Below are positions 14,912-35,091 of a DNA stretch of 64,000 nucleotides, piece after piece. The stretch's first letter is position 1, and each line of letters opens with the position of its first letter. The position numbers and the translations under genes were made by a program. The notes beneath the pieces are model-generated. The model saw only the letters and a program-made list of their open reading frames with translations. It searched no databases and was not told the origin of the DNA. Origin of the DNA: Alphaproteobacteria bacterium (lineage in GTDB: Bacteria > Pseudomonadota > Alphaproteobacteria > MPNO01 > UBA830); the NCBI GenBank assembly GCA_964291215.2, contig OZ219791.1, positions 576,001 through 640,000 of the forward strand. Direction: 5' to 3'.

Positions 14912-15805
14912 TCAATGCGCACCCGGCAAACCGCCACGGCGCGCCTCCTCGCGGACGGCGTACCAGTTGGCGCCGAAGATCGCCACACCGCCGAGAAGCG
15001 TCCACAGACTCAGGGTTTCGGAATAGATCAGGAAGCCGAACAGCGCCATCAGCGGCAGGCGCAGGAAATCCAGGGGAAAGATGATCGTGATGTCTGCCAG
15101 CTTGAGGGCGCGCGCCATCGTGTAGTGCGCCGCAAACCCCGACAGGCCCCAAATCGCTATCCACGGAATGTCGGAAAGCGCGGGCGTCACCCAGCCGAAG
15201 ATGAACACGGCCGGGATCAGGCCAAGCGGCAGCTGGAGCATGTTCATGTAGAAGATGATCGCAGCCGGCGAGTCGGTCCGGGTCAGGTATTTCACCAGAA
15301 CCCCCGAGCCGGCGTAGAAGGCGGAGCCCGCGAGCATGACGCCGCCGGCGATGTTGAAGGCCGATCCCTCGGGCTGCAGGATGATCAGGACCCCGGCAAA
15401 TCCGAGGATCGTAGCTATCCATTTGTGCCGCCACATGCGCTCGCCGAGAAACGCCGCGGCGAGCAGTGCCGTGAACACCGGAACCGAGAATTCGATCGCG
15501 GTAAGGTCTGAAAGCGTCAGGTAGGCGATACCGTACATCCAGCAGAGCTGGCCCGAGAACTGCACGAGAGCGCGAATTCCGTGGAACCGGAAACGCCCCG
15601 TGCGCAGGTCCGCGAAACGGTTGCAGACGATGAAGGGAGAGACGATCAGGACCCCGATCAGGCTGCGGAAGAAGAGAATCTCGAAGGTCGACATCGTCGT
15701 CTGCAGCTCGCGGGCGGAGATCGCCATCCCCGCGAAACCGGCCATGGTGCCGCAGAACCACAGCACTGCCGCCAGCAGCGCCGGCGCAGCGACCCGCGAT
15801 GTCAC
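14912..15805 (-). CDS. DMT/EamA family transporter (4th of 4 tandem)
   Basis: About 10 hydrophobic segments, FEILFFRS, LGER and FPLDFLRLP; GTGA overlap with the upstream DMT. Confidence 0.88.
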   Translation of the reverse strand: MTSRVAAPALLAAVLWFCGTMAGFAGMAISARELQTTMSTFEILFFRSLIGVLIVSPFIVCNRFADLRTGRFRFHGIRALVQFSGQLCWMYGIAYLTLSDLTAIEFSVPVFTALLAAAFLGERMWRHKWIATILGFAGVLIILQPEGSAFNIAGGVMLAGSAFYAGSGVLVKYLTRTDSPAAIIFYMNMLQLPLGLIPAVFIFGWVTPALSDIPWIAIWGLSGFAAHYTMARALKLADITIIFPLDFLRLPLMALFGFLIYSETLSLWTLLGGVAIFGANWYAVREEARRGGLPGAH

Positions 15806-16716
15806 GGTCTCGAACCAGCGGGGCGCGCCTCGCGCCACACGGAGTAGTAGTTCCCGCCAAAGATCAGAAGTGCGCCGAGGATGATCCACGCACCGACGGT
15901 TTCCGAGTAGGCCAGCCACCCCATGAATGCCGCCAGCGGCAGGCGAACGAAGTCTATGGGAATGCATACCGTGGCATCGGCGAGGCGGAACGCCCGTGCC
16001 ATGCAGAAATGGGCGGACATGGCCGTGAATCCGATGACCAGGAGCCAGGGAAGGTCGATCCAGCCCGGCCACACCCAGTCGAACACGAATATCGCCGGAA
16101 CCAGCGCCAGCGGCAGCTGGATGAACTGCATCCAGAACACGATCACCCAGGGCGGATCGGTGGCGGTCAGGGACTTTACCATCACGTTCGAGACGCTGTA
16201 GAGCAGCGAGCCCAGCAACACGATGAGCGCCGCGTCGGTCACGATCTCGAGCCCCGGCCGCAGAATAACCAGCGTGCCCGCGAGGCCGGCGCCGACCGCC
16301 AGCACCCGGTGGCGCCGGACCGGTTCGCCGAGGGCCAGGATGGCGATGATCGCCGTCCACATAGGCATCGTGAATTCGAGCGCGATAACATGGGCAAGCG
16401 GCAGGAGGGTGACGCCGATGACCCAGCACCACTGGCCGCCAAAATGGAAGCCGTTGCGGATGACATGAAACCCGATTCGGCGCGTCAGCACGTTCGCGAA
16501 TCCAAGGCGCCAGGCAATCAGGCACATGACGGGAATGCCGACGATCGACCGGAAGGAGAGAAGCTCGAAACTCGACATGGTCGCCGACAACTCGCGCACT
16601 GCCGCCATCATGAGCAGGAAAGACGCGGCGACGCCAAGCATCCACAATGCCGCCGGTGCGGCCCTGTTGGCGGACGGCGGGCCGGTGTCTGGACCCGCCG
16701 GATCAGCCCGCGTCAC
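15802..16716 (-). CDS. DMT/EamA family transporter (3rd of 4)
   Basis: FELLSFRS, LGEPV and IPIDFVRLP motifs; EamA pattern. Confidence 0.88.
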   Translation of the reverse strand: MTRADPAGPDTGPPSANRAAPAALWMLGVAASFLLMMAAVRELSATMSSFELLSFRSIVGIPVMCLIAWRLGFANVLTRRIGFHVIRNGFHFGGQWCWVIGVTLLPLAHVIALEFTMPMWTAIIAILALGEPVRRHRVLAVGAGLAGTLVILRPGLEIVTDAALIVLLGSLLYSVSNVMVKSLTATDPPWVIVFWMQFIQLPLALVPAIFVFDWVWPGWIDLPWLLVIGFTAMSAHFCMARAFRLADATVCIPIDFVRLPLAAFMGWLAYSETVGAWIILGALLIFGGNYYSVWREARPAGSRP

Positions 16717-17623
16717 CGCGGCCTCCCGGCGGCTCCGCTCGCGCGAGGCGGCTCTCGCGCGCCGTGATATAGGATGTGCTGACCACGATGACCGCGGCGC
16801 CGATCCACACCCAGATCTCGGGAATCTCGCCGAATAGCGCAAAGGCAAGCGCGGCGGTGAAGGGAAGGCGGAGAAAATCCAGGGCCGCCATCACGCTTGC
16901 GTCCGCCGACCTCAGTGCGGTGGTGTAGAAAAACGGCGCCAGCGTGCCCATGACGCCGATGATCAAGATGGGCAGCAAATCGGGCCATGCCGGCACAACC
17001 CAGAAGACGATGGCCGGCGGCACGCAGAAGATGCCGATCAGGATGTTGGTATAGAAGGTCAGCGCCAGCGGTTTTTCGGTTGCTACCATGGCCTTGAGAT
17101 AGATCACTGTCGCCGCGTAGAGGACGGCGGATACTAGGATCATGATCTCGGGCCATCCGATGTCGGCTGAGCCCGGGCGAAGAATGACCAGCATGCCGAC
17201 GAAGCCGACGACGACGGCCGCAATGCGCCGGGGCCCAACCCGCTCGCCCAGGATGAGCACGGCAAGGAGGATGACGAAAAGCGGCAGCGTGAAGTGGATC
17301 GCGACGGCCTTGCCCAGCGGCACGACGGCAATGGCGCTGAACCACAACACCATGCCGGCGAAGTTGATTGCGGCGCGCTGGGCGTGAAGGCCGAAACGGC
17401 GCGTCCGCAGCTGGTGAAACCCCTTCCACGCGTACCAGGGCATCAGCAGGAGGATGCTGATGGCCATGCGCCAGAACACGATCTGGAACGCGGACATCGT
17501 ATCCGAGAGCTCGCGCACTGCGGAGTGCAGTACCGCGAACAGGGCCATCGACACGATGCCGATGCCGATCCCCCTGAGCACTGCCGGCGCCGGGGAAGAC
17601 ATCAACGGTTTGCCGGCGGTCAT
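16703..17623 (-). CDS. DMT/EamA family transporter (2nd of 4)
   Basis: FQIVFWR, LGERVG and ALDFLRLP motifs; ATGA overlap with the upstream DMT. Confidence 0.88.
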   Translation of the reverse strand: MTAGKPLMSSPAPAVLRGIGIGIVSMALFAVLHSAVRELSDTMSAFQIVFWRMAISILLLMPWYAWKGFHQLRTRRFGLHAQRAAINFAGMVLWFSAIAVVPLGKAVAIHFTLPLFVILLAVLILGERVGPRRIAAVVVGFVGMLVILRPGSADIGWPEIMILVSAVLYAATVIYLKAMVATEKPLALTFYTNILIGIFCVPPAIVFWVVPAWPDLLPILIIGVMGTLAPFFYTTALRSADASVMAALDFLRLPFTAALAFALFGEIPEIWVWIGAAVIVVSTSYITARESRLARAEPPGGRGDAG

Positions 17624-18549
17624 GCGGCACCGTTTTCCGGACCCGCGGAAAGTCTGCGGCCCTCTTTTGCCTCGTGCGCGGTAATGTACCAGGCGCTGGC
17701 GAAGATGATCGCCGCACCGGCCCAGACGAATATGTCGGGCACTTCGCCAAAGAGGAGAAATGCAAACAGCGCGGTGAACGGCAGACGCAGGAAGTCGAAG
17801 GCACTGACGACACTGGCGTCGACGGTCCGGAGCGCCGTCGCCACCAGCACCGGCGCAATCAAGCCGCACACTCCGAGTCCGAGGATCGGTAGGATGTCGG
17901 CGGCAACGAGCGGCGCCCAGTCCAGCGCCGTCGGACCAACGCACCACAGCGCCATGAAAAGCGACGTATAGAACGTGATCGCCAGCGGCGTTTCCTCGCG
18001 CACCATGACCTTGATGAAGATGAACGCGACACCGTAGAGCGCCGCCGAGGCGACGATAGCGGCCTCGGGCCACCCGAACGAGATCACCCCCGGCCGGAGA
18101 ATGACCAGCGCGCCGACAAAGCCCGCGAGGACGGCAGCGCAGCGTCGCAGGCCGAGACGTTCGCCAAGAAAAATGACCGCGAAGAGCACGATGAACAGCG
18201 GCATGGTGAAGTGAATCGCGACGCTCTTGGCCAGAACGACATGCTTCAGGGCCCAGAACCATATGACCATGCCGATGAGGTTCACCGTCGCGCGCGCGAA
18301 ATGCAGCCCGGGGCGCCGCGTCCTGAGGCGGTGAACACCGGCCCAGACGAAATACCCGCCGATCAGGACGATGCCGAACAGGCCGCGGATGAACACGATC
18401 TGGAACGGCGACATCGTATCCGAGAGGAGCCGGACCGACGGCGGTACGACACCGAACAGGAGCATTCCCGCCATGATCAGCAGGGCGCTCTGCACGACGC
18501 GACCCGGAGCAGGATCGCCAGCGACCGGCGGCATTGCCCGGATGTTCAC
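17620..18549 (-). CDS. DMT/EamA family transporter (1st of 4)
   Basis: FQIVFIRG, LGERLG and AFDFLRLP motifs; GGGAGG RBS before the GTG at 18549. Confidence 0.88.
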   Translation of the reverse strand: MNIRAMPPVAGDPAPGRVVQSALLIMAGMLLFGVVPPSVRLLSDTMSPFQIVFIRGLFGIVLIGGYFVWAGVHRLRTRRPGLHFARATVNLIGMVIWFWALKHVVLAKSVAIHFTMPLFIVLFAVIFLGERLGLRRCAAVLAGFVGALVILRPGVISFGWPEAAIVASAALYGVAFIFIKVMVREETPLAITFYTSLFMALWCVGPTALDWAPLVAADILPILGLGVCGLIAPVLVATALRTVDASVVSAFDFLRLPFTALFAFLLFGEVPDIFVWAGAAIIFASAWYITAHEAKEGRRLSAGPENGAA

Positions 18550-18595: not shown

Positions 18596-20167
18596 TCACC
18601 GCCGGCTTTCCCAGAGCCGGGAAAGCGCGGTTCGATCGACCTTGCCGCGATCGTTCTTGGGGATCTCGTCGAGGACAACGATGTGTCCGGGCACCTTGAA
18701 CTCGGGGAGGCGCGCCGCGCATCGCGCCCGTATCTCCCCGGGCACGAGCCGGGTTCCCGGCGCCGCCGCGACGAAGCTCGCGATTTCCTCGCCGTAGACG
18801 GCGTCGGGCACCCCGATGGTGGCCGCCTCGCGCAGTTCGGAAAACGAGACCAGCACGTTGTCGATCTCCGAAGGCGAGATATTGACGCCGCCGCGGATGA
18901 TCACGTCGCGGGTGCGCCCGGAGATGATCAGGAATCCGTCCTCGTCGAGATATCCGAGATCACCGGTCTTGAGCCGCGTGCCGCGGATCTTCTCGGTGGC
19001 AGCGCCCTCATGCAGGAAACCCCACCCGATCTGGGCGCCGCCGATCTCGATCTCGCCGATATCGCCCGCCGGCAAGGGCGCGCCGTCCGCATTCACGATG
19101 CGCAGATTCTGGTACAGGCCGGGCCTGCCGACGCTTCCGATACGCCGCGCGCCGACGTGATTGCCGGCAACCACCCCGCCCTCGCTCATGCCGTAAATCT
19201 GGACGAGTTCGACACCATAGGTTTCCTCGAAACGCCGGTGCTGTTCGACCATCAGCGGCGCCGTCGAGGATGACATGAAACGCAAACTGCCCATGGCTTC
19301 GCAGTCGACCGGCCGCGTGTCGCGGCCGAGAAGCATGTTGATGACCGTTGGAATACCGATGGCCATGGTCGGCCGCCAGCGCCGGATCCAGTCGAAGAAG
19401 CGCGACTGCGAGAATCGCCGCGCGAATATCAGGGTCGCGCCGACCACCAGCGCCGGCTGCAGGCACAGCATGTGGGACGAAGCCCAGCCGAAGGACCGGT
19501 ATTCCAGCATGCGGTCGGCATCGGTGAGCTTCCACATATCGATGGTCTGGTCGGCGATCCAGAAATAGTTTCCGAACGTATGCAGCACGCCCTTGGGCGC
19601 CGCCGCCGTCCCCGACGTGAAGCTCATGACGCAGAGGTCGTCCGGGCCGGCGCCGGCAACCGGCGGGTCGTCGCCATCGCTGTAGCCGTCGAGCAGTTCG
19701 AACAGCCCGCCTTCGCCGGCATTCCCGGCCGGCAACCAACGGCCGAAACGAAGCCAGTCCGCGTCCGGTTCCAGTCCGGAGGTGTCGAGATCCCGGTGCC
19801 ACAGAACGAGCTCCGGGTCCATCCGCTGCAGCATTTCACGGATATGCCGCGCGTTGACCTCAACATCGATGGTGCAGAACGCTGCCCCGTATCGCTGGAT
19901 GGCGAAATACAGCGCCAGCATTTCCAGCCGGTTGCCGGTGAGCACGGCAACCCGCCCGCCGGCGCCGACGCCGCGGTCGTGAAGCAGGCGGGCGAACCGG
20001 TTCGAGAAACGCCACAATGCGCCGAAGCTCATCGAGCGGCCGTCCTCGTCGATCGAGATCAGGAACGGCTTGTCCGGACGAAGCGCGGCCTGCTCGCGGA
20101 GGATGTCGCCCACCGCGCGGTAGCGCGACCAGTCCGGTTCGCTCGCGATATCCGAAGCCAATGCCAC
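18596..20167 (-). CDS. Class I adenylate-forming acyl-CoA ligase
   Basis: FTSGTAAAPKG P-loop, YGMSE, KTGDLG, GRTRDVIIRGG and PKNDRGK motifs. Confidence 0.92.
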   Translation of the reverse strand: MALASDIASEPDWSRYRAVGDILREQAALRPDKPFLISIDEDGRSMSFGALWRFSNRFARLLHDRGVGAGGRVAVLTGNRLEMLALYFAIQRYGAAFCTIDVEVNARHIREMLQRMDPELVLWHRDLDTSGLEPDADWLRFGRWLPAGNAGEGGLFELLDGYSDGDDPPVAGAGPDDLCVMSFTSGTAAAPKGVLHTFGNYFWIADQTIDMWKLTDADRMLEYRSFGWASSHMLCLQPALVVGATLIFARRFSQSRFFDWIRRWRPTMAIGIPTVINMLLGRDTRPVDCEAMGSLRFMSSSTAPLMVEQHRRFEETYGVELVQIYGMSEGGVVAGNHVGARRIGSVGRPGLYQNLRIVNADGAPLPAGDIGEIEIGGAQIGWGFLHEGAATEKIRGTRLKTGDLGYLDEDGFLIISGRTRDVIIRGGVNISPSEIDNVLVSFSELREAATIGVPDAVYGEEIASFVAAAPGTRLVPGEIRARCAARLPEFKVPGHIVVLDEIPKNDRGKVDRTALSRLWESRR

Positions 20168-20178
20168 CGGCGCGCTTC

Positions 20179-21707
20179 CTATGCCAGCCCGCTGTTGCCC
20201 ATGAAGCGCAGATATTCGGACTGGCCCGCCTTCATCTCCCGGATCTCCGGTTCGCTGAACCAGCGCGTGAAGTCGAACTTCTCGACCGGATAGCGCGCCC
20301 GCCGGAAATGCTCCCGCGCCGCAAGCGGCACCGTGGCGTCAATTCCGAGTCCGCCCTCGAACATCGAGACCTGTTCGTTCACGCCCATGCGTTCGGCCGG
20401 CATGTAGGCATGCCCCTTCGACTGCGCAGCGCCGGTGAACAGGTCGGTATGCGGATTGACGCGGGTGGCGATGGCCCACATGATGTCTTCCGGCTGGTTG
20501 ATGTCTATGTCATCATCAACGACGACGACAAGGCGCATGCCGCAGGCGATCCCCATGACCGCTTCGAGGATGTTGCGCTGGAGCCCTTCATCCGAACGGC
20601 GGCGCTTCCTGACCTGGATCACGATGCCGCCCCACATCATCAACGCCGTGCTGGCGGTGACATCGACGACCAGACCCGGGGCGATGCGTTCCGCAAGTTC
20701 GTAGTAGTTGGCCGCCGCGAACGGAATCCATTGCCAGACCGAGCCGAGATGGGGGACATAGTATATCGGCTTGTCCGCCCGATGGGTGATGGCGCTGACC
20801 TCGAAACGCCGCGCCCGGTAGGCGCGGCCCATGTAGCGCGCCGATTCCGGATGGAACATCGCGACGCCCTGTTCACCGAGCGCCTCCGCCTCCTCGGTCT
20901 CCCAGACCCGCTGATTGGGAACGATATGCCCCTCGATGACGTACTCGGCATCGCCCACGCATCGACAGTTCTCGCGCGCACGATGCGGACCGGCGACCCC
21001 TGCAGAGTTCCGGCGGCGCCGATTTCGTCCTGAGGGATCGGGTAGATCGCCGAGTTGAGGAAACCGAGGCCCATGAACTCGACCATCGGCGGCGGCGAGA
21101 CATTGACGGTTACCGGTATGCGGTACTCGTGATGGCCGGCGGCGATCTGATCGCCATGTCCGCCCGGAACCATGTTGATCGACGCAACCGTCCGCTCCCT
21201 GAAGCTCATGCGGTAGAAGGAGAGCTGGCTCTTGCCGCCAGCCCACTCGCCGAAGATGCAGTGCACCCCGGATCCGAAGAAGCGCCCGCCATCCTCTTCG
21301 GTGTGGCGCACCATTGGCAGGAGCCGGAACGGATCGACCTCGGCGGCCGGCAGAACCACTTCCTGGACCGGAGCGTCTTCGGTCTCGACCGGCGGAAGCG
21401 GGTTGGCCACGGCGTGGCGGATCCGGTTCTTGATCTCGCCGAGCTCGTCAACGCCGAGGAGCCGGCATATGCGCTCGCGCCGCCCCCACAGGCTCGCAAT
21501 CAGGCGCGCATTGGGATAGCCGGCCACGTTTTCCACCAGAAAGGCGGGGCCGTCATCGAAGGCCTTGTTGATCGCCGTCGCCTCGAGGTCGGGATCCACC
21601 GGCGCCGCGATGCGCCTGACGTCGTCGCCGAGCCATTCGAGGGTGCCGCGGAGCGTAGGAAGCGCCTGCTCCCTGGCGTCCGGCGTGTGGTCGGGTGCCG
21701 CCATCAC
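20179..21707 (-). pseudogene. UbiD-family decarboxylase, phthaloyl-CoA decarboxylase-like clade, frameshifted near 20952
   Basis: The N-half (LRGTLEW, VDPDLE, DAPVQE, DEIGAAGTLQGSPVRIV...TVDAW) and the C-half (DAEYVIEG, FHPE..YMGRAY, DIMWAIATRVNP, GGLGIDATVP) are in different frames. Confidence 0.85.
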
Positions 21708-21822
21708 AGTGTCCTTCCGGTCGTTTCGACAGTATTAGCCCGCTGCCGAGACATATCAAAATGCGCGTCGGGAACATGCTATTGTTCCGCAACCTTCCAT
21801 GAACCCTGCAGGGAGAATTGCC

Positions 21823-23178
21823 GTGACCTACGACGGACCACCTGTCGACCTGTCGGCGAGGATCGACGACCGTGCCGATACGGATGGCGAGTTCCGGGTG
21901 CACCGTTCCGTGTTCGAGGATCCGGCGCTGTTCGAGGCCGAGATGGAGTTCTGCTTCGAGCGCGTGTGGAATTTCCTGTGCCACGAGAGCCAGGTGCCGG
22001 AACCCGGCGATTACCGGGCCGCCCATATCGGCACGCAACCGGTTTTCGTGCACCGCCAGGAAGACGGATCGCTCAAGGCCTTTATCAATGCCTGCTCGCA
22101 CCGGGGTGCTCTGCTCACGCCCTTGCAGGAGGGCAACGCGGCCACTCTGACATGCCGTTTTCATGGCTGGAGCTACCGCTGCGACGGCAGCTGCATCGGG
22201 ATCAAGAACGAGGAAGGCGGGTACGGCCCCGGCTTTGACCGCTCGCGCTACAACCTGACCGAACTGCCCCGGCTGGCGTCCTACAGGGGTTTCGTCTTTG
22301 GCGCGCTCACCGCCGACGTCCCGCCGCTCGACCAACATCTTGGAGACGCCCGTTTCTTCATCGACCTGTTCGCCGACCAGTCGCCCGACGGCCTCGAGAT
22401 CGTCCCGGGCTCGCAGACCTACGTCTGCGACCACGACTGGAAGTTGCAGGCCGACAACGTTACCGACGGCTACCACGTCTCGACCGTGCATCGGAACTTC
22501 ATGAACACCATTCTTGTCCGTGAGGATCGGGAGCAAACCTCGGGCCTCCTGAAAACCGAGGTCGGGCGGATCAAGGGCGGCGTCCGGAACGGGCAGTACT
22601 ACCTGGGCAACGGCCACATGTGCATCTGGGCCGAGCGGACGAGCCCCGAAGGCGCACCGCTGGCTCCGGCGACGGAGCGCATCGATAGCGAGTTCGGGCC
22701 CGTCAAGGCGGAATGGATGCTGCGGCGGGGACGCAATATCCTGATCTTCCCCAATCTTGTCCTCAACGACCTCGCCTCGACTCACCTGCGCACCCACCGG
22801 CCGCTGGGCCCGGGACGGTGCGAGATCACGATCTGGTGCATCGCGCCAAGAAACGAGCCCCGCGAAGCGCGTTTCGCGCGCCTCCGAAAGTTCGAGGACT
22901 TCTTTCTCGTATCCGGCCTGTCGACGTCAGACGACATCGTCTCCCTCGACACCGCGCAGAAGGGCCTGCGCGGCCCGGATTCCGGCTGGAACGTCTATGA
23001 CCGCGGTCTCGGCGCCATGGTCGCGGGACCCGACGAGACGGCCGGTGAAGCCGGGCTGTCTCCTGTCTCGAGCGGCGAAAGCTGGGACCACGAAGCCTGC
23101 TATGTCGGCTGGTACCGCTACTGGCGCGATCTCCTCGAGAACGGCGCGCGCGCGGATGTGTCGATGGCGGCCGAGTAA
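21823..23178 (+). CDS. Rieske aromatic ring-hydroxylating oxygenase alpha subunit (BenA/XylX-like)
   Basis: Rieske CSH...CRFH and mononuclear-iron DGYHVSTVH motifs; GGGAGA RBS before GTG 21823 (ATG 21799 is an alternative start). Confidence 0.92.
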   Translation: MTYDGPPVDLSARIDDRADTDGEFRVHRSVFEDPALFEAEMEFCFERVWNFLCHESQVPEPGDYRAAHIGTQPVFVHRQEDGSLKAFINACSHRGALLTPLQEGNAATLTCRFHGWSYRCDGSCIGIKNEEGGYGPGFDRSRYNLTELPRLASYRGFVFGALTADVPPLDQHLGDARFFIDLFADQSPDGLEIVPGSQTYVCDHDWKLQADNVTDGYHVSTVHRNFMNTILVREDREQTSGLLKTEVGRIKGGVRNGQYYLGNGHMCIWAERTSPEGAPLAPATERIDSEFGPVKAEWMLRRGRNILIFPNLVLNDLASTHLRTHRPLGPGRCEITIWCIAPRNEPREARFARLRKFEDFFLVSGLSTSDDIVSLDTAQKGLRGPDSGWNVYDRGLGAMVAGPDETAGEAGLSPVSSGESWDHEACYVGWYRYWRDLLENGARADVSMAAE

Positions 23179-23274
23179 CGATCTCCGGGAATGACGGGGC
23201 CGGGACAGTTTCGCGAAGTCGCGAACGCAGCGCAGGGCGGCCTGACCCGCCTTGGCCGGGCGCCGCAGTCCGGT

Positions 23275-24117
23275 TCAGCCCGTACAGCCGGTCTCGCGTA
23301 GCGGCGCCAGGCGTTCGAGAAACCGCTCCAGCGCAGCATTGAACCGGGGCGGATCCTCCATGCAGCCATAGTGACCTGCGCCTTCGATCATCTCGATCGA
23401 GTTCCCCGGGAGCGCAGCCCGCGCTGCCGTTCCGACCTCCGGCGGCGATACCGGGTCATCGCTGCCGGCAACGACCAGCGTGGGCGCAACGACCGCCAGC
23501 GCCAGTTCCGCAATGTCCGACCGCGCCATCATCTCGACCGCCTGGCAGTAACCGCGCTGCGGAATCAGCTTCATCACACCGATCACGAGATCGGCAACCG
23601 CGTCCGAGGCGTCCGGCCCGAGCATGCGCCGGCCGCGCTCCTCTGCGAGAGCTTCGGCGCCGCCGGAAAGATACGCGTCGAGCCTGGCCTTGCGCTGTCG
23701 CTCGCGTTCCGCGGGCGGAAGTCCTGCAAGTCCGGGAAGTCCCTGGCAAAACGTGTAGGAAAGCGTACGTCCGGGATGTCTTCCGGCAAACGCCGCTCCG
23801 ATCAGTGCGGCGACGGACTGCCCGACGACATGCGCCCTGTCCACGTCCAGGCCGTCGAGGACCCCGGCCAGCACATCCGCGTAATCGAACGCGGACGGAG
23901 TCCGCCGGGCGAGATCTTGCGAGAATCCGTAACCGGGCATGTCCCAGGCAATAACGCGATACCTCGTCTGCAGCGCGCGAAACTGGAAGGCCCAGCTTTC
24001 CGAGGCCCCTCCGAGGCCGTGGAGCAGCACCAGGGCCGGCCCGACATCGCCCGAATCCCGGACCGCAACGCCGACGCCGTTTCCGCGAACGGTCCGCGGT
24101 TCCGGCAAGGGCGTCAC
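23275..24117 (-). CDS. Alpha/beta hydrolase (enol-lactonase-like)
   Basis: LLHGLGG, DMPGYG, GQSVA nucleophile elbow and GAGH. Confidence 0.85.
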   Translation of the reverse strand: MTPLPEPRTVRGNGVGVAVRDSGDVGPALVLLHGLGGASESWAFQFRALQTRYRVIAWDMPGYGFSQDLARRTPSAFDYADVLAGVLDGLDVDRAHVVGQSVAALIGAAFAGRHPGRTLSYTFCQGLPGLAGLPPAERERQRKARLDAYLSGGAEALAEERGRRMLGPDASDAVADLVIGVMKLIPQRGYCQAVEMMARSDIAELALAVVAPTLVVAGSDDPVSPPEVGTAARAALPGNSIEMIEGAGHYGCMEDPPRFNAALERFLERLAPLRETGCTG

Positions 24118-24212
24118 GGCGCGTCCCCCGCCCGTACAGGACGGAACATCTTGATCCTTCCCGCGATTGCGCTACGGTTGACTACCCCGCACGGGACAAG
24201 GGAGCAGGCACC

Positions 24213-24794
24213 ATGTCGGCTGTCAGGATAAGGAAAGTCGTCACCGTCATCAGCGAGATCCGAACCGAGGCTAACCAACCCGTCGACCCCGCAACGCGGC
24301 AATGCGCCGCGATCGCCGTCATCGCCAATCCCTATGCCGGGCGCTATTCGGCGGACCTTTCCGAACTCGAGGCCGCGGGCGCCGAGCTCGGAGATCTTCT
24401 CGGCCGCCGCGCGATGGCGGCGCTCGGCGTCGGACCCGAGGACATAGAGAGCTTCGGCAAGGCTGCAATCATCGGCGAGAACGGAGAGCGGGAACATGGC
24501 GCTGCTGTCATGCATCCTACTCTTGGCAAGCCCTTGCGCGCCGTTGTCGGACCGGCTCCCTCGGTCATCCCGTCGACCAAGAAGATCGGCGGGCCAGGCA
24601 CCACGATCGACTGCCCGTTGCATCACAAGGAGGAACTTTGGACCTTCTCGCATTTCGACGCGATGGAGGTCTCGCTGCCTGACGCGCCGGGAGCCGATGA
24701 AATCGTGGTCATTGTCGCACTCGCCGATTCCGGCCGGCCGCTTCATCGCGTCGGAGAAGGCCCCGACGCCCCTGAAGTCATGCCAGACGACTGA
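24213..24794 (+). CDS. Amino acid synthesis family protein (DUF1185)
   Basis: AVIANPYAGRY, IESFGKAAIIGENGEREH, SHFDAME and GRPLHRVG motifs. Confidence 0.85.
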   Translation: MSAVRIRKVVTVISEIRTEANQPVDPATRQCAAIAVIANPYAGRYSADLSELEAAGAELGDLLGRRAMAALGVGPEDIESFGKAAIIGENGEREHGAAVMHPTLGKPLRAVVGPAPSVIPSTKKIGGPGTTIDCPLHHKEELWTFSHFDAMEVSLPDAPGADEIVVIVALADSGRPLHRVGEGPDAPEVMPDD

Positions 24795-25159
24795 TCCCCG
24801 CCGTCACGGATCTCGACGATCCGGCCGGGAGAGACGTGAACGCCGTAGGTAATCAGCGGCGCATCGCCCGTCACCCGGAAACCGTGGGCTTGGCCGGCAC
24901 GAAAAACCAGCGTGATGCCGGGCGTGAGATCGATGGGACCAGGACGGTCCTCGGCCCAGGCCTCGCCGGTTCCCGACAGCACTGTCAGCACTTCCATGTA
25001 GGGATGAGCATGCTCGGGCGTCGCGTAACCCGGCGGCGAGGTCTGGATGCCGCAGCGCACGGGCGTCGAGCCCTCGTCGTCGCCGACCAGGGTCTGATAT
25101 GTCGCGCCTCCCGGAAAGATGTCCTTCCGGCAGGCGTCGTGGCGAACTATTTCCGTCAT
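24743..25159 (-). CDS. Cupin domain protein
   Basis: HAHPYME...HGF cupin motifs; GGGGAA RBS upstream; 3' end overlaps the convergent DUF1185 gene. Confidence 0.8.
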   Translation of the reverse strand: MTEIVRHDACRKDIFPGGATYQTLVGDDEGSTPVRCGIQTSPPGYATPEHAHPYMEVLTVLSGTGEAWAEDRPGPIDLTPGITLVFRAGQAHGFRVTGDAPLITYGVHVSPGRIVEIRDGGDQSSGMTSGASGPSPTR

Positions 25160-25250
25160 GTCCCGTTCCCCCACATCAAGGCCGCACGCCCGGCCTCCGT
25201 CAGGATTTCTGGCCAGCCATTGGGCGCGACGGCAACGGCGGCCGCCCGTC

Positions 25251-27128
25251 TCATGCCTCCGCGGCGGACGTGAAGCGCAGGATGGCATGGACAATCGCAC
25301 AGCCCGCAGCAGCCACGACAAGGGTCAGCGGAGAATCGGGGCCGAGCCATATGGTCGATGACCCGACGACCAGGCAGGCGGCGTACATGGCGGCGCCGAA
25401 TAGCCAGCCGAATCTGCCGCCGCGCGCGAACACGGTTACCGAATGCGCCAGCAGGAGGCCCGCCCCCCCGGCGCTGACGACGGCGTAGACCACCTGGACC
25501 AGGCTACCCTCGAGAAGCAGGGCCGGGTTGAAGACCCACAGGTATGGCAGCAGATACGCTGTCGCAGCGAGCTGGACACCGATCAGGCCGGTCTTCCACA
25601 TGTCCCCGCCGGCCATTTCGGCAGCCACCATGGAAGCGATCGCGACCGGCGGCGTGAGCATGCTGATCAGCCCGAAATAGAACAGGAAGAGGTGCGCGCC
25701 GATCGGGACCAGCCCCATGTTGACGAGCGCCGGGCCGATGACCGAGACAAGGACGATATAGACCGTGGCCGTCGGCATCCCCATACCAAGCACGATGCAT
25801 ATCAGCGAGGTCAGGAACAGCATGACGAGTATGCCGTTGCTCTTTCCGATCGCGGTCAGGATGAGGCTGAGCTGGAATGCGAGACCGGTCGAGTTCAGGA
25901 CGCCAAGAATGATGCCGGCAGCGCCGGCGATCAGCAGCAGCGGCACCAGTATCTCGCCGCTGCCGAAGATGAAATTGCGCCAGTGCTCCAATGTCGGCGG
26001 CCGGCGATCACGCACGATCATCAGAACGACCAGGCTCGCGCCGGAATAGAGCGCCGAAAGGCCCGGGTTGTAGCCAAGCCAGAACAGGAAATAGAGAAGG
26101 ATGACGATGGGCAGGATGAAGACCCAGCCGCTTCGAAGAACGGTCCGGACCACCGGCAGCTCCTCGCGCGGCAAACCCATGATCCGGAACCGCCTGGCAA
26201 CCGCGTCGACCTGAAGAAAGAGCACGAAGAAATAGATGGCCGCGGGAGCCGCGGCGGCAATGACAACATCCTGGTACGGGATCTCGAGGAATTCGGCGAT
26301 GATGAACGCGGTTGCACCCATGACCGGCGGCGCGATCTGGCCGCCGTTCGAGGCGACTGCCTCGATCGCGCCCGCATATTCGTTTCGGAAACCGGTGCGT
26401 TTCATCAGCGGGATGGTGACGATGCCCGTCGACATGATGTTCGCCACCGTCGATCCCGAAATCGTCCCGAAGGCGCTCGAGGCAATGACGGCGACCTTCG
26501 CCGGCCCGCCGCGGCGATGCCCCATGAAGCCCATCGCCAGATCGTTGAGAAAAGCGGTGCCGCCGCTTACTTCCATGAGCTTGCCGAAGATGATGAAGGC
26601 AAGCACCAGATTGACCACGACCTGAAGAACCAGGCCGGGCACGCCGTTGTTGTCGGCGTAGTAGTAGGTCAGGGTCTTGGTCGGCGGGAAAACTTCGGCT
26701 TCGAAAACGCCCGGCAGGTGATTACCGAAAAAGGCGTAGAGGATCAGGACCCAGACCAGCCCGGCGATGATCTTTCCCGCCGCCTTGCGCAGCCCCTCCA
26801 TGAGAAGGAACAGCGCGATCGCGCCGGGGACCCACTTATCGGGCGTGCGTTCGTGCGCAGTGACGATCCAGTCCTCGAAATTGTAGGACATCCAGAACCA
26901 TACGAGGAAACCGGCGACAGCAAGCACGGCCTCGAAAATGCCCGGCCTGGAGAAATAGGGATATCTGAGGAGGGCGGCGGCGCAGGCAAGCCCCAAAATG
27001 ACCCCGAGAATCTGCTGGAACGTCAGCGCGACCCCGAAATAGTCGGTGACGGCCAGGATCCAGCCTATGCCGACGATCGGAATGGCGCCGAGGCAGGCGC
27101 GCAGGAGAGCCCTGTTGAAAGTCTCCAT
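25251..27128 (-). CDS. TRAP transporter fused 4TM/12TM permease (TAXI type)
   Basis: GGPAKVAV, AGAIEAVASNGGQIAPPVMGA and LGMGMPT motifs. Confidence 0.93.
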   Translation of the reverse strand: METFNRALLRACLGAIPIVGIGWILAVTDYFGVALTFQQILGVILGLACAAALLRYPYFSRPGIFEAVLAVAGFLVWFWMSYNFEDWIVTAHERTPDKWVPGAIALFLLMEGLRKAAGKIIAGLVWVLILYAFFGNHLPGVFEAEVFPPTKTLTYYYADNNGVPGLVLQVVVNLVLAFIIFGKLMEVSGGTAFLNDLAMGFMGHRRGGPAKVAVIASSAFGTISGSTVANIMSTGIVTIPLMKRTGFRNEYAGAIEAVASNGGQIAPPVMGATAFIIAEFLEIPYQDVVIAAAAPAAIYFFVLFLQVDAVARRFRIMGLPREELPVVRTVLRSGWVFILPIVILLYFLFWLGYNPGLSALYSGASLVVLMIVRDRRPPTLEHWRNFIFGSGEILVPLLLIAGAAGIILGVLNSTGLAFQLSLILTAIGKSNGILVMLFLTSLICIVLGMGMPTATVYIVLVSVIGPALVNMGLVPIGAHLFLFYFGLISMLTPPVAIASMVAAEMAGGDMWKTGLIGVQLAATAYLLPYLWVFNPALLLEGSLVQVVYAVVSAGGAGLLLAHSVTVFARGGRFGWLFGAAMYAACLVVGSSTIWLGPDSPLTLVVAAAGCAIVHAILRFTSAAEA

Positions 27129-27168
27129 CGGGCCGTCTCCTGCGCGCGCGCTCGACTGGCGCGATACT

Positions 27169-28182
27169 CTACTTCAACAGCATCGCGTCGTTCTTGGCGT
27201 TCGCATCCGTGTAGATGCCGACCTCCTTGTAGTACTTGGCAGCACCAGGATGGAAGGGGATCGGATTGCTCGACGGAGATAACCCGTTCTGCTTGGTGCC
27301 CCGGAGCGGCGGATAATCCTTCTGCATCTGCTTCCAGTTCTCGTAGATCGCCTTCGCCATCTTGTAGGCATCCTCATCGCCGACCTTGCTTCCGGCATTG
27401 AGGTAGGAATCGAACGCGGCGATCTTGGTTTCGCCCCGTACGAACGCCTTGGTCTTGCTCGGCTTCTCGACATGCGAATAGAGCCCGGCCATGCCCTTGC
27501 CGAGGAACTCGTCAGTCCCCTTGGGCCCCACGGGGAGCAGCCGCAAACCGCCGGGGACCGTGGCATGCGCCTTGCGCAGCGCCGGCATCCCCGTCGCGAC
27601 AGGCGCAGCGTCAACTCGCCCCTGAACGACCATGCCGATGCTCGCGACGACCCCTCCCGAATCAACCGCCGTTATATCGTCAGTCGTGAGACCGGCGGTC
27701 GCAAGGATGGTGCGATTGGTCTGGGCCAGCGACACGTTGGTCTTGTACTTGACGACGACGCGCTTGCCCTTGAGGTCGGTCAGCGACTTGATGCCAGAGC
27801 TTTCCTTGACCATATAGGCGTAGGGAAGGATCCACACCCGCGCGAGCGCCCGCACGTTTTTCGTCGCCTGCTTGTAGGGTTGGCGACCGTTCCACGCAAG
27901 ACCGCCGTCAAGCGAGGAGTTCATGCCGAGCGTGATCTCGCCCGCGTTCTGAAGCGGAAGGTAGACGGACGAACCGGCATGGGGCTGGGCCGTGGCGCGG
28001 ATGCCGATCTTCTCCTGGAAGAGCTTGGCAAACCCGCTTCCGAGCAGGAAATAGGTCGAGCCCTGCGGATTGGTTCCGATGGTGATGCGTTTCAACTGTG
28101 CGTCGGCAGCCGACGGCAGGCAGGCCGAGAGCAGTGCCGCGCACAGCGCCGGCGCGAGGTATCGTGACACGCGAATCGTCAT
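27169..28182 (-). CDS. TAXI family TRAP solute-binding protein
   Basis: Signal peptide, ITIGTNPQGSTY, DLKGKRV and IPFHPGAAKYYKE. Confidence 0.92.
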   Translation of the reverse strand: MTIRVSRYLAPALCAALLSACLPSAADAQLKRITIGTNPQGSTYFLLGSGFAKLFQEKIGIRATAQPHAGSSVYLPLQNAGEITLGMNSSLDGGLAWNGRQPYKQATKNVRALARVWILPYAYMVKESSGIKSLTDLKGKRVVVKYKTNVSLAQTNRTILATAGLTTDDITAVDSGGVVASIGMVVQGRVDAAPVATGMPALRKAHATVPGGLRLLPVGPKGTDEFLGKGMAGLYSHVEKPSKTKAFVRGETKIAAFDSYLNAGSKVGDEDAYKMAKAIYENWKQMQKDYPPLRGTKQNGLSPSSNPIPFHPGAAKYYKEVGIYTDANAKNDAMLLK

Positions 28183-33019: not shown

Positions 33020-33521
33020 CAGGGTCCCGGTCTTCAGCGTGCGGAACCAGGTCTCGATAACAGGACCCGGGAGGCCAGCCCGCAAACCTGGACGCCGGGA
33101 AGAAACCGATGATGGCAGATCACGCGCCTGATGTTGGCGGCGCGGGCGTCGGCAGACCATCCACTTGTCCCGCGCCCGCAGCTGCCAGGTCGCGAAGCCG
33201 ATCCCGCGTGCCGTGGTGCTGCGAGCGGACCCGATAGCGCATCTGGCCGCGCCTCCCGGAGCTGGCGATCGTCGGTGCCACCCACCGGCGAGACCGGACC
33301 GAGATCCTGCAGCAGGCGGGCGAGCCCGGTACGTCATCGGACGGGACGGCGGGCACGACGGTCGGGGACGCGCCGTGGCGGCGGAAGCTCGAGACCCACG
33401 CGCTTGGCGAGCGCCGGCAGCGCCTGCCGCCGACAGGCACGGACGACCAGGCGCGTTGCGCCAGCCGGTGCGCTCGCGTGACCAATGGACGGCAACCCGC
33501 CGCCGGAACCACAAGCTGCAT
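33020..33521 (-). pseudogene. Degraded DUF4338 (DruA-like)/IS4-family transposase fragment B
   Basis: Scattered across frames: MQLVVPAA, GWRNAPGRPCLSA, LPALAKRVGLELPP, GQMRYRVRS, GIGFATWQLRARDKW, GWSADARAANIRRVICHHRFLPGV, then IETWFRTLKTGT (IS4-type DDE helix). Recognised from memory of such fusions. Confidence 0.6.
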
Positions 33522-33629
33522 CTCGTCTCGCTCGCACGATATCGACAAGGCGGAACCCCGGACCGTCTGTAGACAACCACGGAAAACACCATCGCGGACA
33601 CCCGCAAAAACCTTGCCAGGAAACATGGA

Positions 33630-33976
33630 TGCTCGGGATTCCAGGTCGCCATCATCACCAGGTGCTTGTCCTCGCCGTCGCCGACCGGATCCACGGTGAC
33701 CTCGCCAGGCTCCTCCGGAGAACATGCGAGTGGCTTGTCGGTACAGTCCCGCTCAAGGGTGTCGAGGCCATGAGGCCTTGGTGGAGGAAGGACGATGCCG
33801 AGCGCCGAGGCAAGATCAGGTAGGGCCGCACGCGGCAAGGCACAGTTCACCCTTCGCGTTGCGTCAGTCCTCGCGCTCGCACAATCCCTGCGCCAAGGCG
33901 TGCTGCTCTCGGCAACCGATGTCGCCTTCAGCCAATCAACCGTCGTCGTGGACAGATGTCGAAAGTCAATTCTCAT
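33630..33976 (-). pseudogene. Second N-terminal fragment (A) of a related DUF4338/IS4-type element
   Basis: MRIDFRHLSTTTVDWLK...RAALPDLASALGIVLPPPR...LACS..GEVTVDPV..MMAT. It parallels the LPALAKRVGLELPPPR segment of fragment B. Confidence 0.5.
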
Positions 33977-34093
33977 GCGCCACTATATAGGGCCTCATGA
34001 ACGTTGAAAGAGGCGCGGCTTTAACACTGGCTGACGCCAGCCGGACCGAAAAAAGCTCTCGCTTTTGATGCCACGCCGTGTCATATTGCCGGC

Positions 34094-34483
34094 ATGGATC
34101 AGACACCGCAGTTCGCCGCCCAGATTTCTCCTTGGCTGACACCGGTCGTCCTGCTGACCGTTCTCGGTCTCATGTGGCGCAGCATGCTGCGGCTCGAAGA
34201 CCGGCTCAGCAAGCGCATCGACGACACGAACAAGCGTATCGACGACACCAACAGGCGCATCGACGAAACCGCCGCCGCGCTCGTCAAACGCATCGACGAC
34301 ACCACCGCTGCGCTCGTCAAACGCATCGACGACACCACCGCCGCGCTTGGCGCACGCATCGACGGAATCGACAACCGGCTGCGGGCGCTTGAGACCGGCC
34401 AGGCGGAGATCAAGGGAAAGCTCGACTTCGTCGAAGCATACATCCTTGGACGCAACGCCCCCGGAACCGCGCCTGCGGAGTGA
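34094..34483 (+). CDS. Small membrane-anchored coiled-coil protein with internal KRIDDT repeats
   Basis: Intact 129-aa ORF: N-terminal hydrophobic helix (WLTPVVLLTVLGLMW), then 7-aa and 11-aa repeats. Confidence 0.75.
   Translation: MDQTPQFAAQISPWLTPVVLLTVLGLMWRSMLRLEDRLSKRIDDTNKRIDDTNRRIDETAAALVKRIDDTTAALVKRIDDTTAALGARIDGIDNRLRALETGQAEIKGKLDFVEAYILGRNAPGTAPAE
34211..34366 (+). repeat. Intragenic tandem repeat: 2x21 bp + 3x33 bp + partial unit, core CGCATCGACGACAC
   Basis: Units begin at 34211, 34232, 34253, 34286, 34319 and 34352. Confidence 0.9.
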
Positions 34484-34533
34484 TCCGGCGGCTCGGGGCG
34501 GCACGCATCCCGCATTGAGCCGCCTGTCCGCAT

Positions 34534-34905
34534 TCACCGAGCGAATGTGGACAGGACCGGATGAAGGGTTCGGCGCGGCCAGTCCCGCAGCAGGTCGTCG
34601 TACAACGCCGAGGGGCGGCCCGAGACCATCACCTGAAACGGCAGCCCCTTGAGCAGTTCAAGGAGTTCGACATGGTCGGTGTAGTCGTGACGGTACCGCC
34701 GGCCCGACCGGCGCGTCGCCTGCAGGGATCGCTGCAGACCAGTTCCGTGCCCCGGAACGCAAGGCCGGCCAGGAACGCGTGGGCGCCGGCGCTTCATCAG
34801 CACGCCGCCTCCGAGATGCGTTTCCACATACAGATCATGCGGGGGCCGGAGCCCCGGAAGCAGCTGGCACAGCCCGCTCGTCGCCTTCGATCCAAAGTAG
34901 CCCAC
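34534..34905 (-). pseudogene. Internally deleted D12-class DNA adenine methyltransferase remnant
   Basis: GYFGSKATSGLCQ...PPHDLYVETHLGGG (motif I-like), then RYRHDYTDHVELLELLKGLPFQVMVSG..SALYD. The catalytic DPPY region is absent. Confidence 0.7.
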
Positions 34906-35091
34906 TGGCGGTCCCCATCGTTCTCGATGACCGTCACTGAACGAATCGGGCTGCAATGTCAAATCTCCACGAGAACCCGTTCGTTGCTCTACCCCGACAT
35001 CAAGCCGGAACCAGGGGGTGAGCAGTTACTTTTATTCTCTGACAGATCCCGCTATGGCGGATGGCATGTCCGTTGTGATATTGCATCGTTC

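Follow-up and report, generated by a model that had tools for sequence, protein, structure and literature searches.

A frameshifted ubiD beside a CoA ligase gene in an alphaproteobacterium represents a sister clade of phthaloyl-CoA decarboxylase

The 64,000-nucleotide stretch of an Alphaproteobacteria bacterium genome considered here (contig OZ219791.1, positions 576,001 to 640,000; hereafter the window) carries on its complementary strand a ubiD gene (21704..20179) followed by a gene for an ATP-dependent acyl-CoA ligase. The window copy of ubiD is frameshifted and probably dead. Its intact relatives belong to a clade which is sister to phthaloyl-CoA decarboxylase (Pcd), and on balance we favour the view that they decarboxylate an aromatic or heteroaromatic diacid in the form of its CoA thioester, which the adjacent ligase would make. 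The ubiD stop at 20179 lies 11 nucleotides before the GTG start (20167) of the ligase gene (18596..20167, complementary strand), just as in the preliminary description of this DNA, and the ligase itself is an intact AMP-binding protein of 523 amino acids. In what follows G000 is the genome containing the window (99% complete), other G numbers are further genomes, L numbers are loci, P numbers are database proteins and X1 to X4 are sequencing runs. The papers cited are drawn on as excerpts.

Relative to its nearest intact relative (L001) the window ubiD lacks 7 nucleotides after position 20948. This loss (20948..20949) shifts the frame, such that the gene appears as two overlapping frames, which the preliminary description had only hinted at with the word "repaired". 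The 5' half (20949..21704, complementary strand, 252 codons) specifies UbiD_N together with the initial portion of Rift, and the 3' half (20179..20949, same strand, other frame, 256 codons) the remaining Rift and UbiD_C; domains PF20695, PF01977 and PF20696 were found across the two. The break falls inside the Rift domain, that is, the cofactor-binding barrel, and past it the 5' frame continues through about 100 unrelated residues until a stop at 20640. The loss is not due to misassembly: contigs of X1, X2 and X3 span the site without a gap and share the 7-nucleotide loss, and X4 (labelled sponge metagenome, about 94% alike) has 7 extra letters there. X1 to X3 come from one study, and X1 is possibly the source run of the assembly; X3 is about 98.7% alike to the window, its 22 differing letters over the stretch marking it as a distinct strain. 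The strain comparison covers X1 to X4, the small-share runs X5 to X20 having been left out. Programmed frameshifting was also considered and rejected, no slippery heptamer being present near the break.

A single open frame giving the whole enzyme, which the window ubiD does not have, is found in L001 to L005. Among 37 genome loci surveyed both halves were present in 35, and in 34 of these they lie in one frame; the exception (L036) is broken at other places and has broken neighbours too. Of the metagenome loci, two out of 44 (L056 and L086) were called in two pieces. Within G000 itself 28 of the 29 ubiD loci are whole, only that of the window being frameshifted, and each of 15 further L001 genes with a match in the window aligns without a change of frame.

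The changes that followed the break were polarised with X4 and L001; among the 20 listed of the 22 differences to X3, 19 lie in ubiD. Since the split from X3 the window branch has accumulated three synonymous and six non-synonymous changes in this gene. That ratio is compatible with neutrality (synonymous share expected at 0.29 to 0.41) and differs from the 75% synonymous changes seen between the window and L001 (P 0.010). Two of the changes, both in the 3' half, affect residues which are nearly invariant in 34 clade rows (L001 numbering): W292S, where the Trp is 97% conserved and adjoins the catalytic Glu, and R392C, where the Arg is 100% conserved. The ligase gene displays nine synonymous and five non-synonymous changes and no indel in X3. 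We regard the window ubiD as a probable pseudogene.

In X3 a 30-nucleotide piece of ubiD (window 20729-20758) was also seen flanked on both sides by a 36-nucleotide sequence, resembling a CRISPR repeat-spacer-repeat, at chromosome-like depth. The 36-mer occurs as a single copy in G000 (C2:2605795-2605830, L184), where it is intergenic with no cas gene near, and it is diverged in G001. It differs from the repeats of the two G000 arrays (CRISPR-cas loci C1:574322-587303 and C2:2064272-2069547), one of which has about 96 repeats and the other about 17 repeats and a 949-amino acid Cas9-like frame.

Both halves of the window UbiD found Pcd (8oz5/8pmk) as their best match in PDB (E 1.3e-52 and 2e-37), the next family following at 1.5e-14 for the first half and 6e-17 for the second. 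The six motifs which the preliminary description had listed as typical of Pcd are all present, in alignment with the Pcd of PDB 8oz5/8pmk. For alignments and trees the window protein was read with an X at the break. A FastTree analysis of 113 rows (what remained of 168 after reduction at 90% identity, with UbiDs of less than 440 amino acids excluded) and an IQ-TREE analysis of 47 selected rows (under LG+G4 without a mixture model) agree in giving a window clade (100/100) and a Pcd clade which includes PhtDa of Aromatoleum aromaticum EbN1 (100/100). These two unite with P0120 at 100/94, within a wider uncharacterised group. The AroY-like proteins, so labelled from similarity only, and Escherichia coli UbiD branch outside that group, and the forced union of the window clade with the AroY-like rows was rejected (p-AU 5e-10). 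The preliminary description had staked its proposal on a phylogeny in which the repaired protein should not group with UbiDs that act on free acids; it is sister to Pcd and stands away from them. While closer to Pcd than to the free-acid enzymes, it lies outside the characterised Pcd clade, in a separate sister clade, and has 37% identity to EbN1 PhtDa.

Judged by record titles, members of the clade occur in Alphaproteobacteria, Betaproteobacteria and Chloroflexota; the names given to the best 120 database hits are generic annotations. No paper describing this UbiD clade or its ligase family was found in the literature covered, outside which the main Pcd papers lie and which further included excerpts of bioRxiv 10.1101/2022.07.29.502009, PMC12391406 and PMC7976604.

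Residues R167, E273 and E291 align with R180, E285 and D290 of E. coli UbiD. The Arg-Glu-Glu/Asp catalytic network, described for UbiD enzymes in the excerpted text of PMC5818171, is therefore kept. The window UbiD shares with Pcd/PhtDa (PDB 8oz5, 8p02, 8pmk; EbN1 WP_011255033) an insert between the two catalytic Glu residues and about 25 diagnostic columns, and both have a CoA-activating neighbour; the window UbiD differs in its own clade, in some 30 fixed differences and in its frameshift. Whereas the EbN1 system has succinyl-CoA:phthalate CoA-transferase, UbiX and TAXI-TRAP, the window ubiD has no adjacent ubiX or PhtS genes.

The link of the clade to CoA activation is extensive. In 26 of 30 clade rows, or 25 of 29 distinct lineages (two rows being the same gene), ubiD has a CoA ligase or CoA-transferase gene at a distance of at most two called genes, and in 19 of the 29 the neighbour is of the same ligase family as in the window. 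Elsewhere such a neighbour was found for 5/8 Pcd, 8/19 of the wider group and 1/27 other G000 UbiDs. In these counts a lineage was included if any of its loci qualified; kin are not independent, database proteins without context were left out, and gene calling misses some genes, such as a ubiD at C1:560.8 kb and the Rieske gene in L145. Chloroflexota members (L009, L013, L014 and L068) adjoin family III CoA-transferases instead of the ligase, as in the EbN1 operon. In L007 and L008 genes for a crotonase, UbiD, the ligase, TctC and a 3-hydroxyacyl-CoA dehydrogenase stand in a row.

The ligases form one clade (46 rows, support 99), an uncharacterised family with invariant R224 and W228 (R-x3-W), the Trp of which we take to sit, like that of acetyl-CoA synthetase, at the aromatic gate of the pantetheine tunnel. 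The ligase profile comes closest to oxalyl-CoA (1e-101) and malonyl-CoA (1e-91) synthetases, with aryl-CoA ligases following at 1e-67 to 1e-61. The nearest solved relatives of the family are AAE3 oxalyl-CoA synthetase (PDB 5ie0, 6qjz) and MatB malonyl-CoA synthetase (4fuq), both of which activate dicarboxylates; where AAE3 has V-L-P-L-F-H this family has Y-R-S-F-S-W, and the window ligase is about 30% identical to G000's own AAE3-like gene. The same family flanks true Pcd genes in L112, L120, L124 and L126, and at the Pcd loci L109, L120 and L121 a gene labelled benzoate-CoA-ligase-like, on the strength of a motif, is located on the other side. Since a second G000 ligase (C1:630.9 kb) groups with those adjacent to Pcd, the window ligase represents a different subfamily.

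Modules of a ligase and a UbiD are already known. The phthalate-CoA ligase of Desulfosarcina cetonica (JCM12296_RS19390; PMC9516798, in part) acts with Pcd in the same design, ligase and not transferase, and is likened here by description; unlike that system, the window host has boxBC, many Rieske oxygenases and no bcrB. Also likened by description are the isophthalate-CoA ligase and isophthalyl-CoA decarboxylase (WP_028893368) of Syntrophorhabdus aromaticivorans, again a ligase followed by a UbiD on a benzene dicarboxylate. According to the excerpted portion of PMC9516798 this ligase is PaaK-like and of about 49 kDa, whereas the 523-residue window ligase is nearest MatB/AAE3, and the 25 top-scoring of 109 NCBIfam families include none for PaaK; iso- and terephthalate, named as candidates in the preliminary description, thus gained no specific support. 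Close relatives of isophthalyl-CoA decarboxylase are described as phenolic acid decarboxylase subunit C in the part of PMC8269228 consulted.

Elsewhere in G000 a search for ubiX, box and bcr genes, as had been advised, revealed a single, unlinked ubiX (C1:1737742, TIGR00421 over cut-off), none being among the window genes scanned, in accord with the earlier statement. It also revealed a boxB over cut-off beside a boxC-like gene (C2:2494494-2497974), with a short frame and transposase-like pieces upstream. That one ubiX serves 29 ubiD loci, an unusually large UbiD expansion.

G000 possesses an intact true Pcd as well (C1:388635-390212, L038; 72% identical to EbN1), which has no ubiX, CoA-transferase or ligase within two genes, its neighbours being a P450 and a major facilitator superfamily transporter. 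True Pcd is a near-core gene of the order (68 of 78 genomes, and 42 of the 43 good ones), the ligase family is present in 76 of 78, and a PhtSb-type gene in 0/78 (control 3/3). The clustering of Pcd with ubiX and PhtSa/PhtSb does not extend to the window ubiD, none of these being in the window, and the EbN1 CoA-transferase subunits find their best counterparts in G000 at about 30 to 35% identity. Pcd-like genes occur in seven of 401 genomes sampled from the phylum of G041. Of the Desulfobacterota genes the five nearest Pcd (L131, L133, L134, L138 and L161; 48 to 81% identity) each stand beside PhtS-like CoA-transferases, and those near 50% identity may constitute a further subclade.

For the intact relatives we infer the order of the steps, the class of substrate and the route that follows. 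From its family and linkage, the ligase would use ATP and CoA to thioesterify one carboxyl of the diacid. By analogy with Pcd, and with the catalytic residues conserved, UbiD would then remove the other carboxyl with prenylated FMN supplied by the product of the unlinked ubiX. The resulting aryl-CoA might enter an aerobic CoA route such as BoxBC, and the divergent Rieske alpha subunit, with a borrowed beta subunit and reductase, might conceivably handle this acid or a related one by a route that depends on oxygen. In the window strain the break presumably abolishes the UbiD step.

Several observations weigh against this reading. The roughly 30 conserved columns at which the clade differs from Pcd include a Gly to Arg change three residues after the catalytic Glu, and because of these differences the tree leaves the substrate class of the UbiD unfixed. 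Columns specific to the clade comprise R294 and residues 176-187 and 322-325. X3 also lacks the 7 nucleotides, yet its branch displays seven synonymous to three non-synonymous changes (P 0.009 to 0.063 under neutrality), which fits poorly with one old inactivation of ubiD; small numbers, recombination or repeated deletion could account for it. Neither a boxA over cut-off nor bcrB was found in G000. The G000 control for CoA linkage becomes 2/28 when the uncalled ubiD at C1:560.8 kb, with a ligase two genes away, is added.

The remaining difficulty lies in the neighbourhood. The Rieske ring-hydroxylating oxygenase alpha subunit gene (21799..23178, forward strand; the GTG at 21823 is the likelier start) is divergent from ubiD, as had been reported. 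In a survey of the 78 genomes of the order (orthologues having at least 63% identity) it was found in 40, and in 28 of these it is divergent from, and within 10 kb of, an orthologue of the ligase gene. The slot between the two holds a ubiD of the window type in five genomes (G000, G001, G004, G026 and G030); it is empty in nine, spread over five genera, and is occupied in 14, of which 12 are one genus, by a UbiD whose best PDB match is PhdA (7pda, 1.5e-117). PhdA, a phenazine-1-carboxylate decarboxylase which acts on the free acid (PMC10850782, excerpted), belongs to a distant UbiD subfamily and matches the slot UbiD of these 14 relatives, not the window's gene. The ligase lies elsewhere in G025 and G450, where the PhdA-like and Rieske genes have kept together. 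Because the slot is so often empty or otherwise filled, the window-type ligase does not need a window-type UbiD.

The stable unit across the order is the ligase and the orphan Rieske alpha, the ubiD slot being exchangeable. No remnants of a window-type ubiD were found in empty slots at 16 loci. Because two families share it at 76% identity in the same position, the window-type ubiD is probably old in the slot and would have been lost or replaced repeatedly, and the window locus appears to have been caught in transit to the ligase and Rieske state of nine relatives. The earlier idea of CoA-dependent decarboxylation of an aromatic dicarboxylate holds up for the family, given the Pcd-sister clade and its linkage to CoA genes. 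It does not hold up as a working new pathway at the window locus, where ubiD is frameshifted and has lost two near-invariant residues, the slot is exchangeable and the steadier partner of the ligase is the Rieske gene.

That exchangeability raises the possibility, which we consider unlikely, of a reverse order of events: the slot UbiD would decarboxylate the free (hetero)aromatic diacid and the ligase would then activate the monoacid, ligase and Rieske being the core and UbiD an exchangeable entry step. The PhdA-like or empty slots of the relatives, and PhdA's action on a free acid, speak for this, as does the intact state of the ligase, with its 9:5 changes, after ubiD broke. However, the closest characterised relative of the clade works only on a CoA thioester, Chloroflexota members adjoin CoA-transferases in the manner of the EbN1 operon, and the exchange may have happened just once, 12 of the 14 PhdA-like cases belonging to one genus. 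The ligase profile, nearest to oxalyl-CoA and malonyl-CoA synthetases, together with the gene rows of L007 and L008, might instead point to a non-aromatic unsaturated diacid (maleate-, citraconate-, glutaconate-like or alicyclic) which is converted to an enoyl-CoA and passed to beta-oxidation. This we hold to be quite improbable, since the ligase family flanks true Pcd orthologues together with the benzoate-CoA-ligase-like gene, and the neighbours across the order are ring oxygenases (Rieske, HpaB-like and gentisate-dioxygenase-like).

It is very improbable, finally, that the split ubiD still works in these strains, by recoding or as two pieces. The break is common to three runs, the X3 branch looks constrained and a GTG lies just ahead of the 3' half; but the break cuts the cofactor-binding barrel and would burden the first piece with its foreign residues, there is no slippery heptamer, W292S and R392C arose on the window branch and each of the near orthologues L001 to L005 is read in a single frame.

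The Rieske alpha is BenA-like but scores below the TIGR03229 cut-off (424 versus 781 bits), and there is no beta subunit or reductase gene beside it in the window, beta genes occurring only elsewhere in the genome. Neither by score nor by an adjacent beta subunit does it qualify as benzoate 1,2-dioxygenase. Past it lie the further genes which the preliminary description had placed nearby: an alpha/beta hydrolase, PcaD-like but below cut-off (23275..24117, complementary strand), DUF1185 (PF06684; 24213..24794, forward), a cupin (24743..25159, complementary), a fused TRAP permease (25251..27128, complementary; TIGR02123 above cut-off) and a TAXI solute-binding protein (27169..28182, complementary; TIGR02122 above cut-off). 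Four tandem EamA (drug/metabolite transporter, DMT) genes directly downstream of the ligase (14912..18495, complementary) had been omitted. Orthologues of the hydrolase recur beside the Rieske gene, and EamA genes beside the ligase orthologues; the window-type TAXI, TRAP, cupin and DUF1185 genes were observed with this ubiD only within the genus (L001 and L002). A promoter scan gave three sites against 2.1 expected, and the one about 25 nucleotides upstream of the ubiD start is not above chance.

The preliminary description had pointed to TRAP transporters as feeders of known phthalate pathways. The permease of the window TAXI-TRAP is 33% identical to the EbN1 phthalate TRAP and ranks fifth among the G000 paralogues, the EbN1 phthalate TAXI has no match at E 1e-10 among called G000 genes, and the DMT gene of the EbN1 phthalate cluster gave no hit at the same threshold. 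Orthology of the TAXI-TRAP and DMT genes to that cluster thus found no support in paralogue rank or at E 1e-10, and the window transporter is unusable as a guide to the substrate.

Some related arrangements were observed in passing. Throughout family f2 (L156, L157, L164-L175, L178 and L179) the gene for a PhdA-like UbiD points away from that of the Rieske alpha, often with an HpaB-like gene, and the nearest G000 paralogue of the PhdA-like slot UbiD (69%) is at C2:2296726. Ligase orthologues in L154 and L155 are divergent from a gentisate-dioxygenase-like cupin in place of the Rieske gene, and in G004 (L002:3956-7600) the Rieske gene and ubiD are separated by an inserted autotransporter with Ig-like repeats. 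A G000 locus (C1:2013648-2020638, L043) contains DUF1185, a 400-amino acid unknown protein, two tandem Rieske alphas (54% identity to that of the window), one beta subunit, a Zn dehydrogenase and a reductase; the orphan alpha might obtain its partners from here. Elsewhere in the window (33131-34962) transposase-like fragments and a 129-amino acid coiled repeat protein with no Pfam match are found amid housekeeping genes.

It is possible, though doubtful, that in aerobic Alphaproteobacteria the R-x3-W ligase family performs, so far unrecognised, the activating step for the entire Pcd superclade. Those CoA-dependent UbiD enzymes which have been characterised use phthalates as substrates, and in PMC9516798 they are assumed to have been adapted from some other, natural function. 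Terephthalate activation is still described as unsolved under anoxia in the portion of PMC13040137 consulted. The sister clade, widespread and equipped with a ligase family of its own, in genomes where true Pcd is near-core as well, names enzymes to assay for the natural substrate and could supply catalysts for other aromatic diacids; as the window copy is broken, work on the clade should use intact orthologues. If the ligase family has that role, the two sister decarboxylases and their ligases would represent an ancient route for natural benzene- or heteroarene-polycarboxylates, predating plasticisers, from which phthalate degradation would have been recruited, and the window would show one branch of it being lost.

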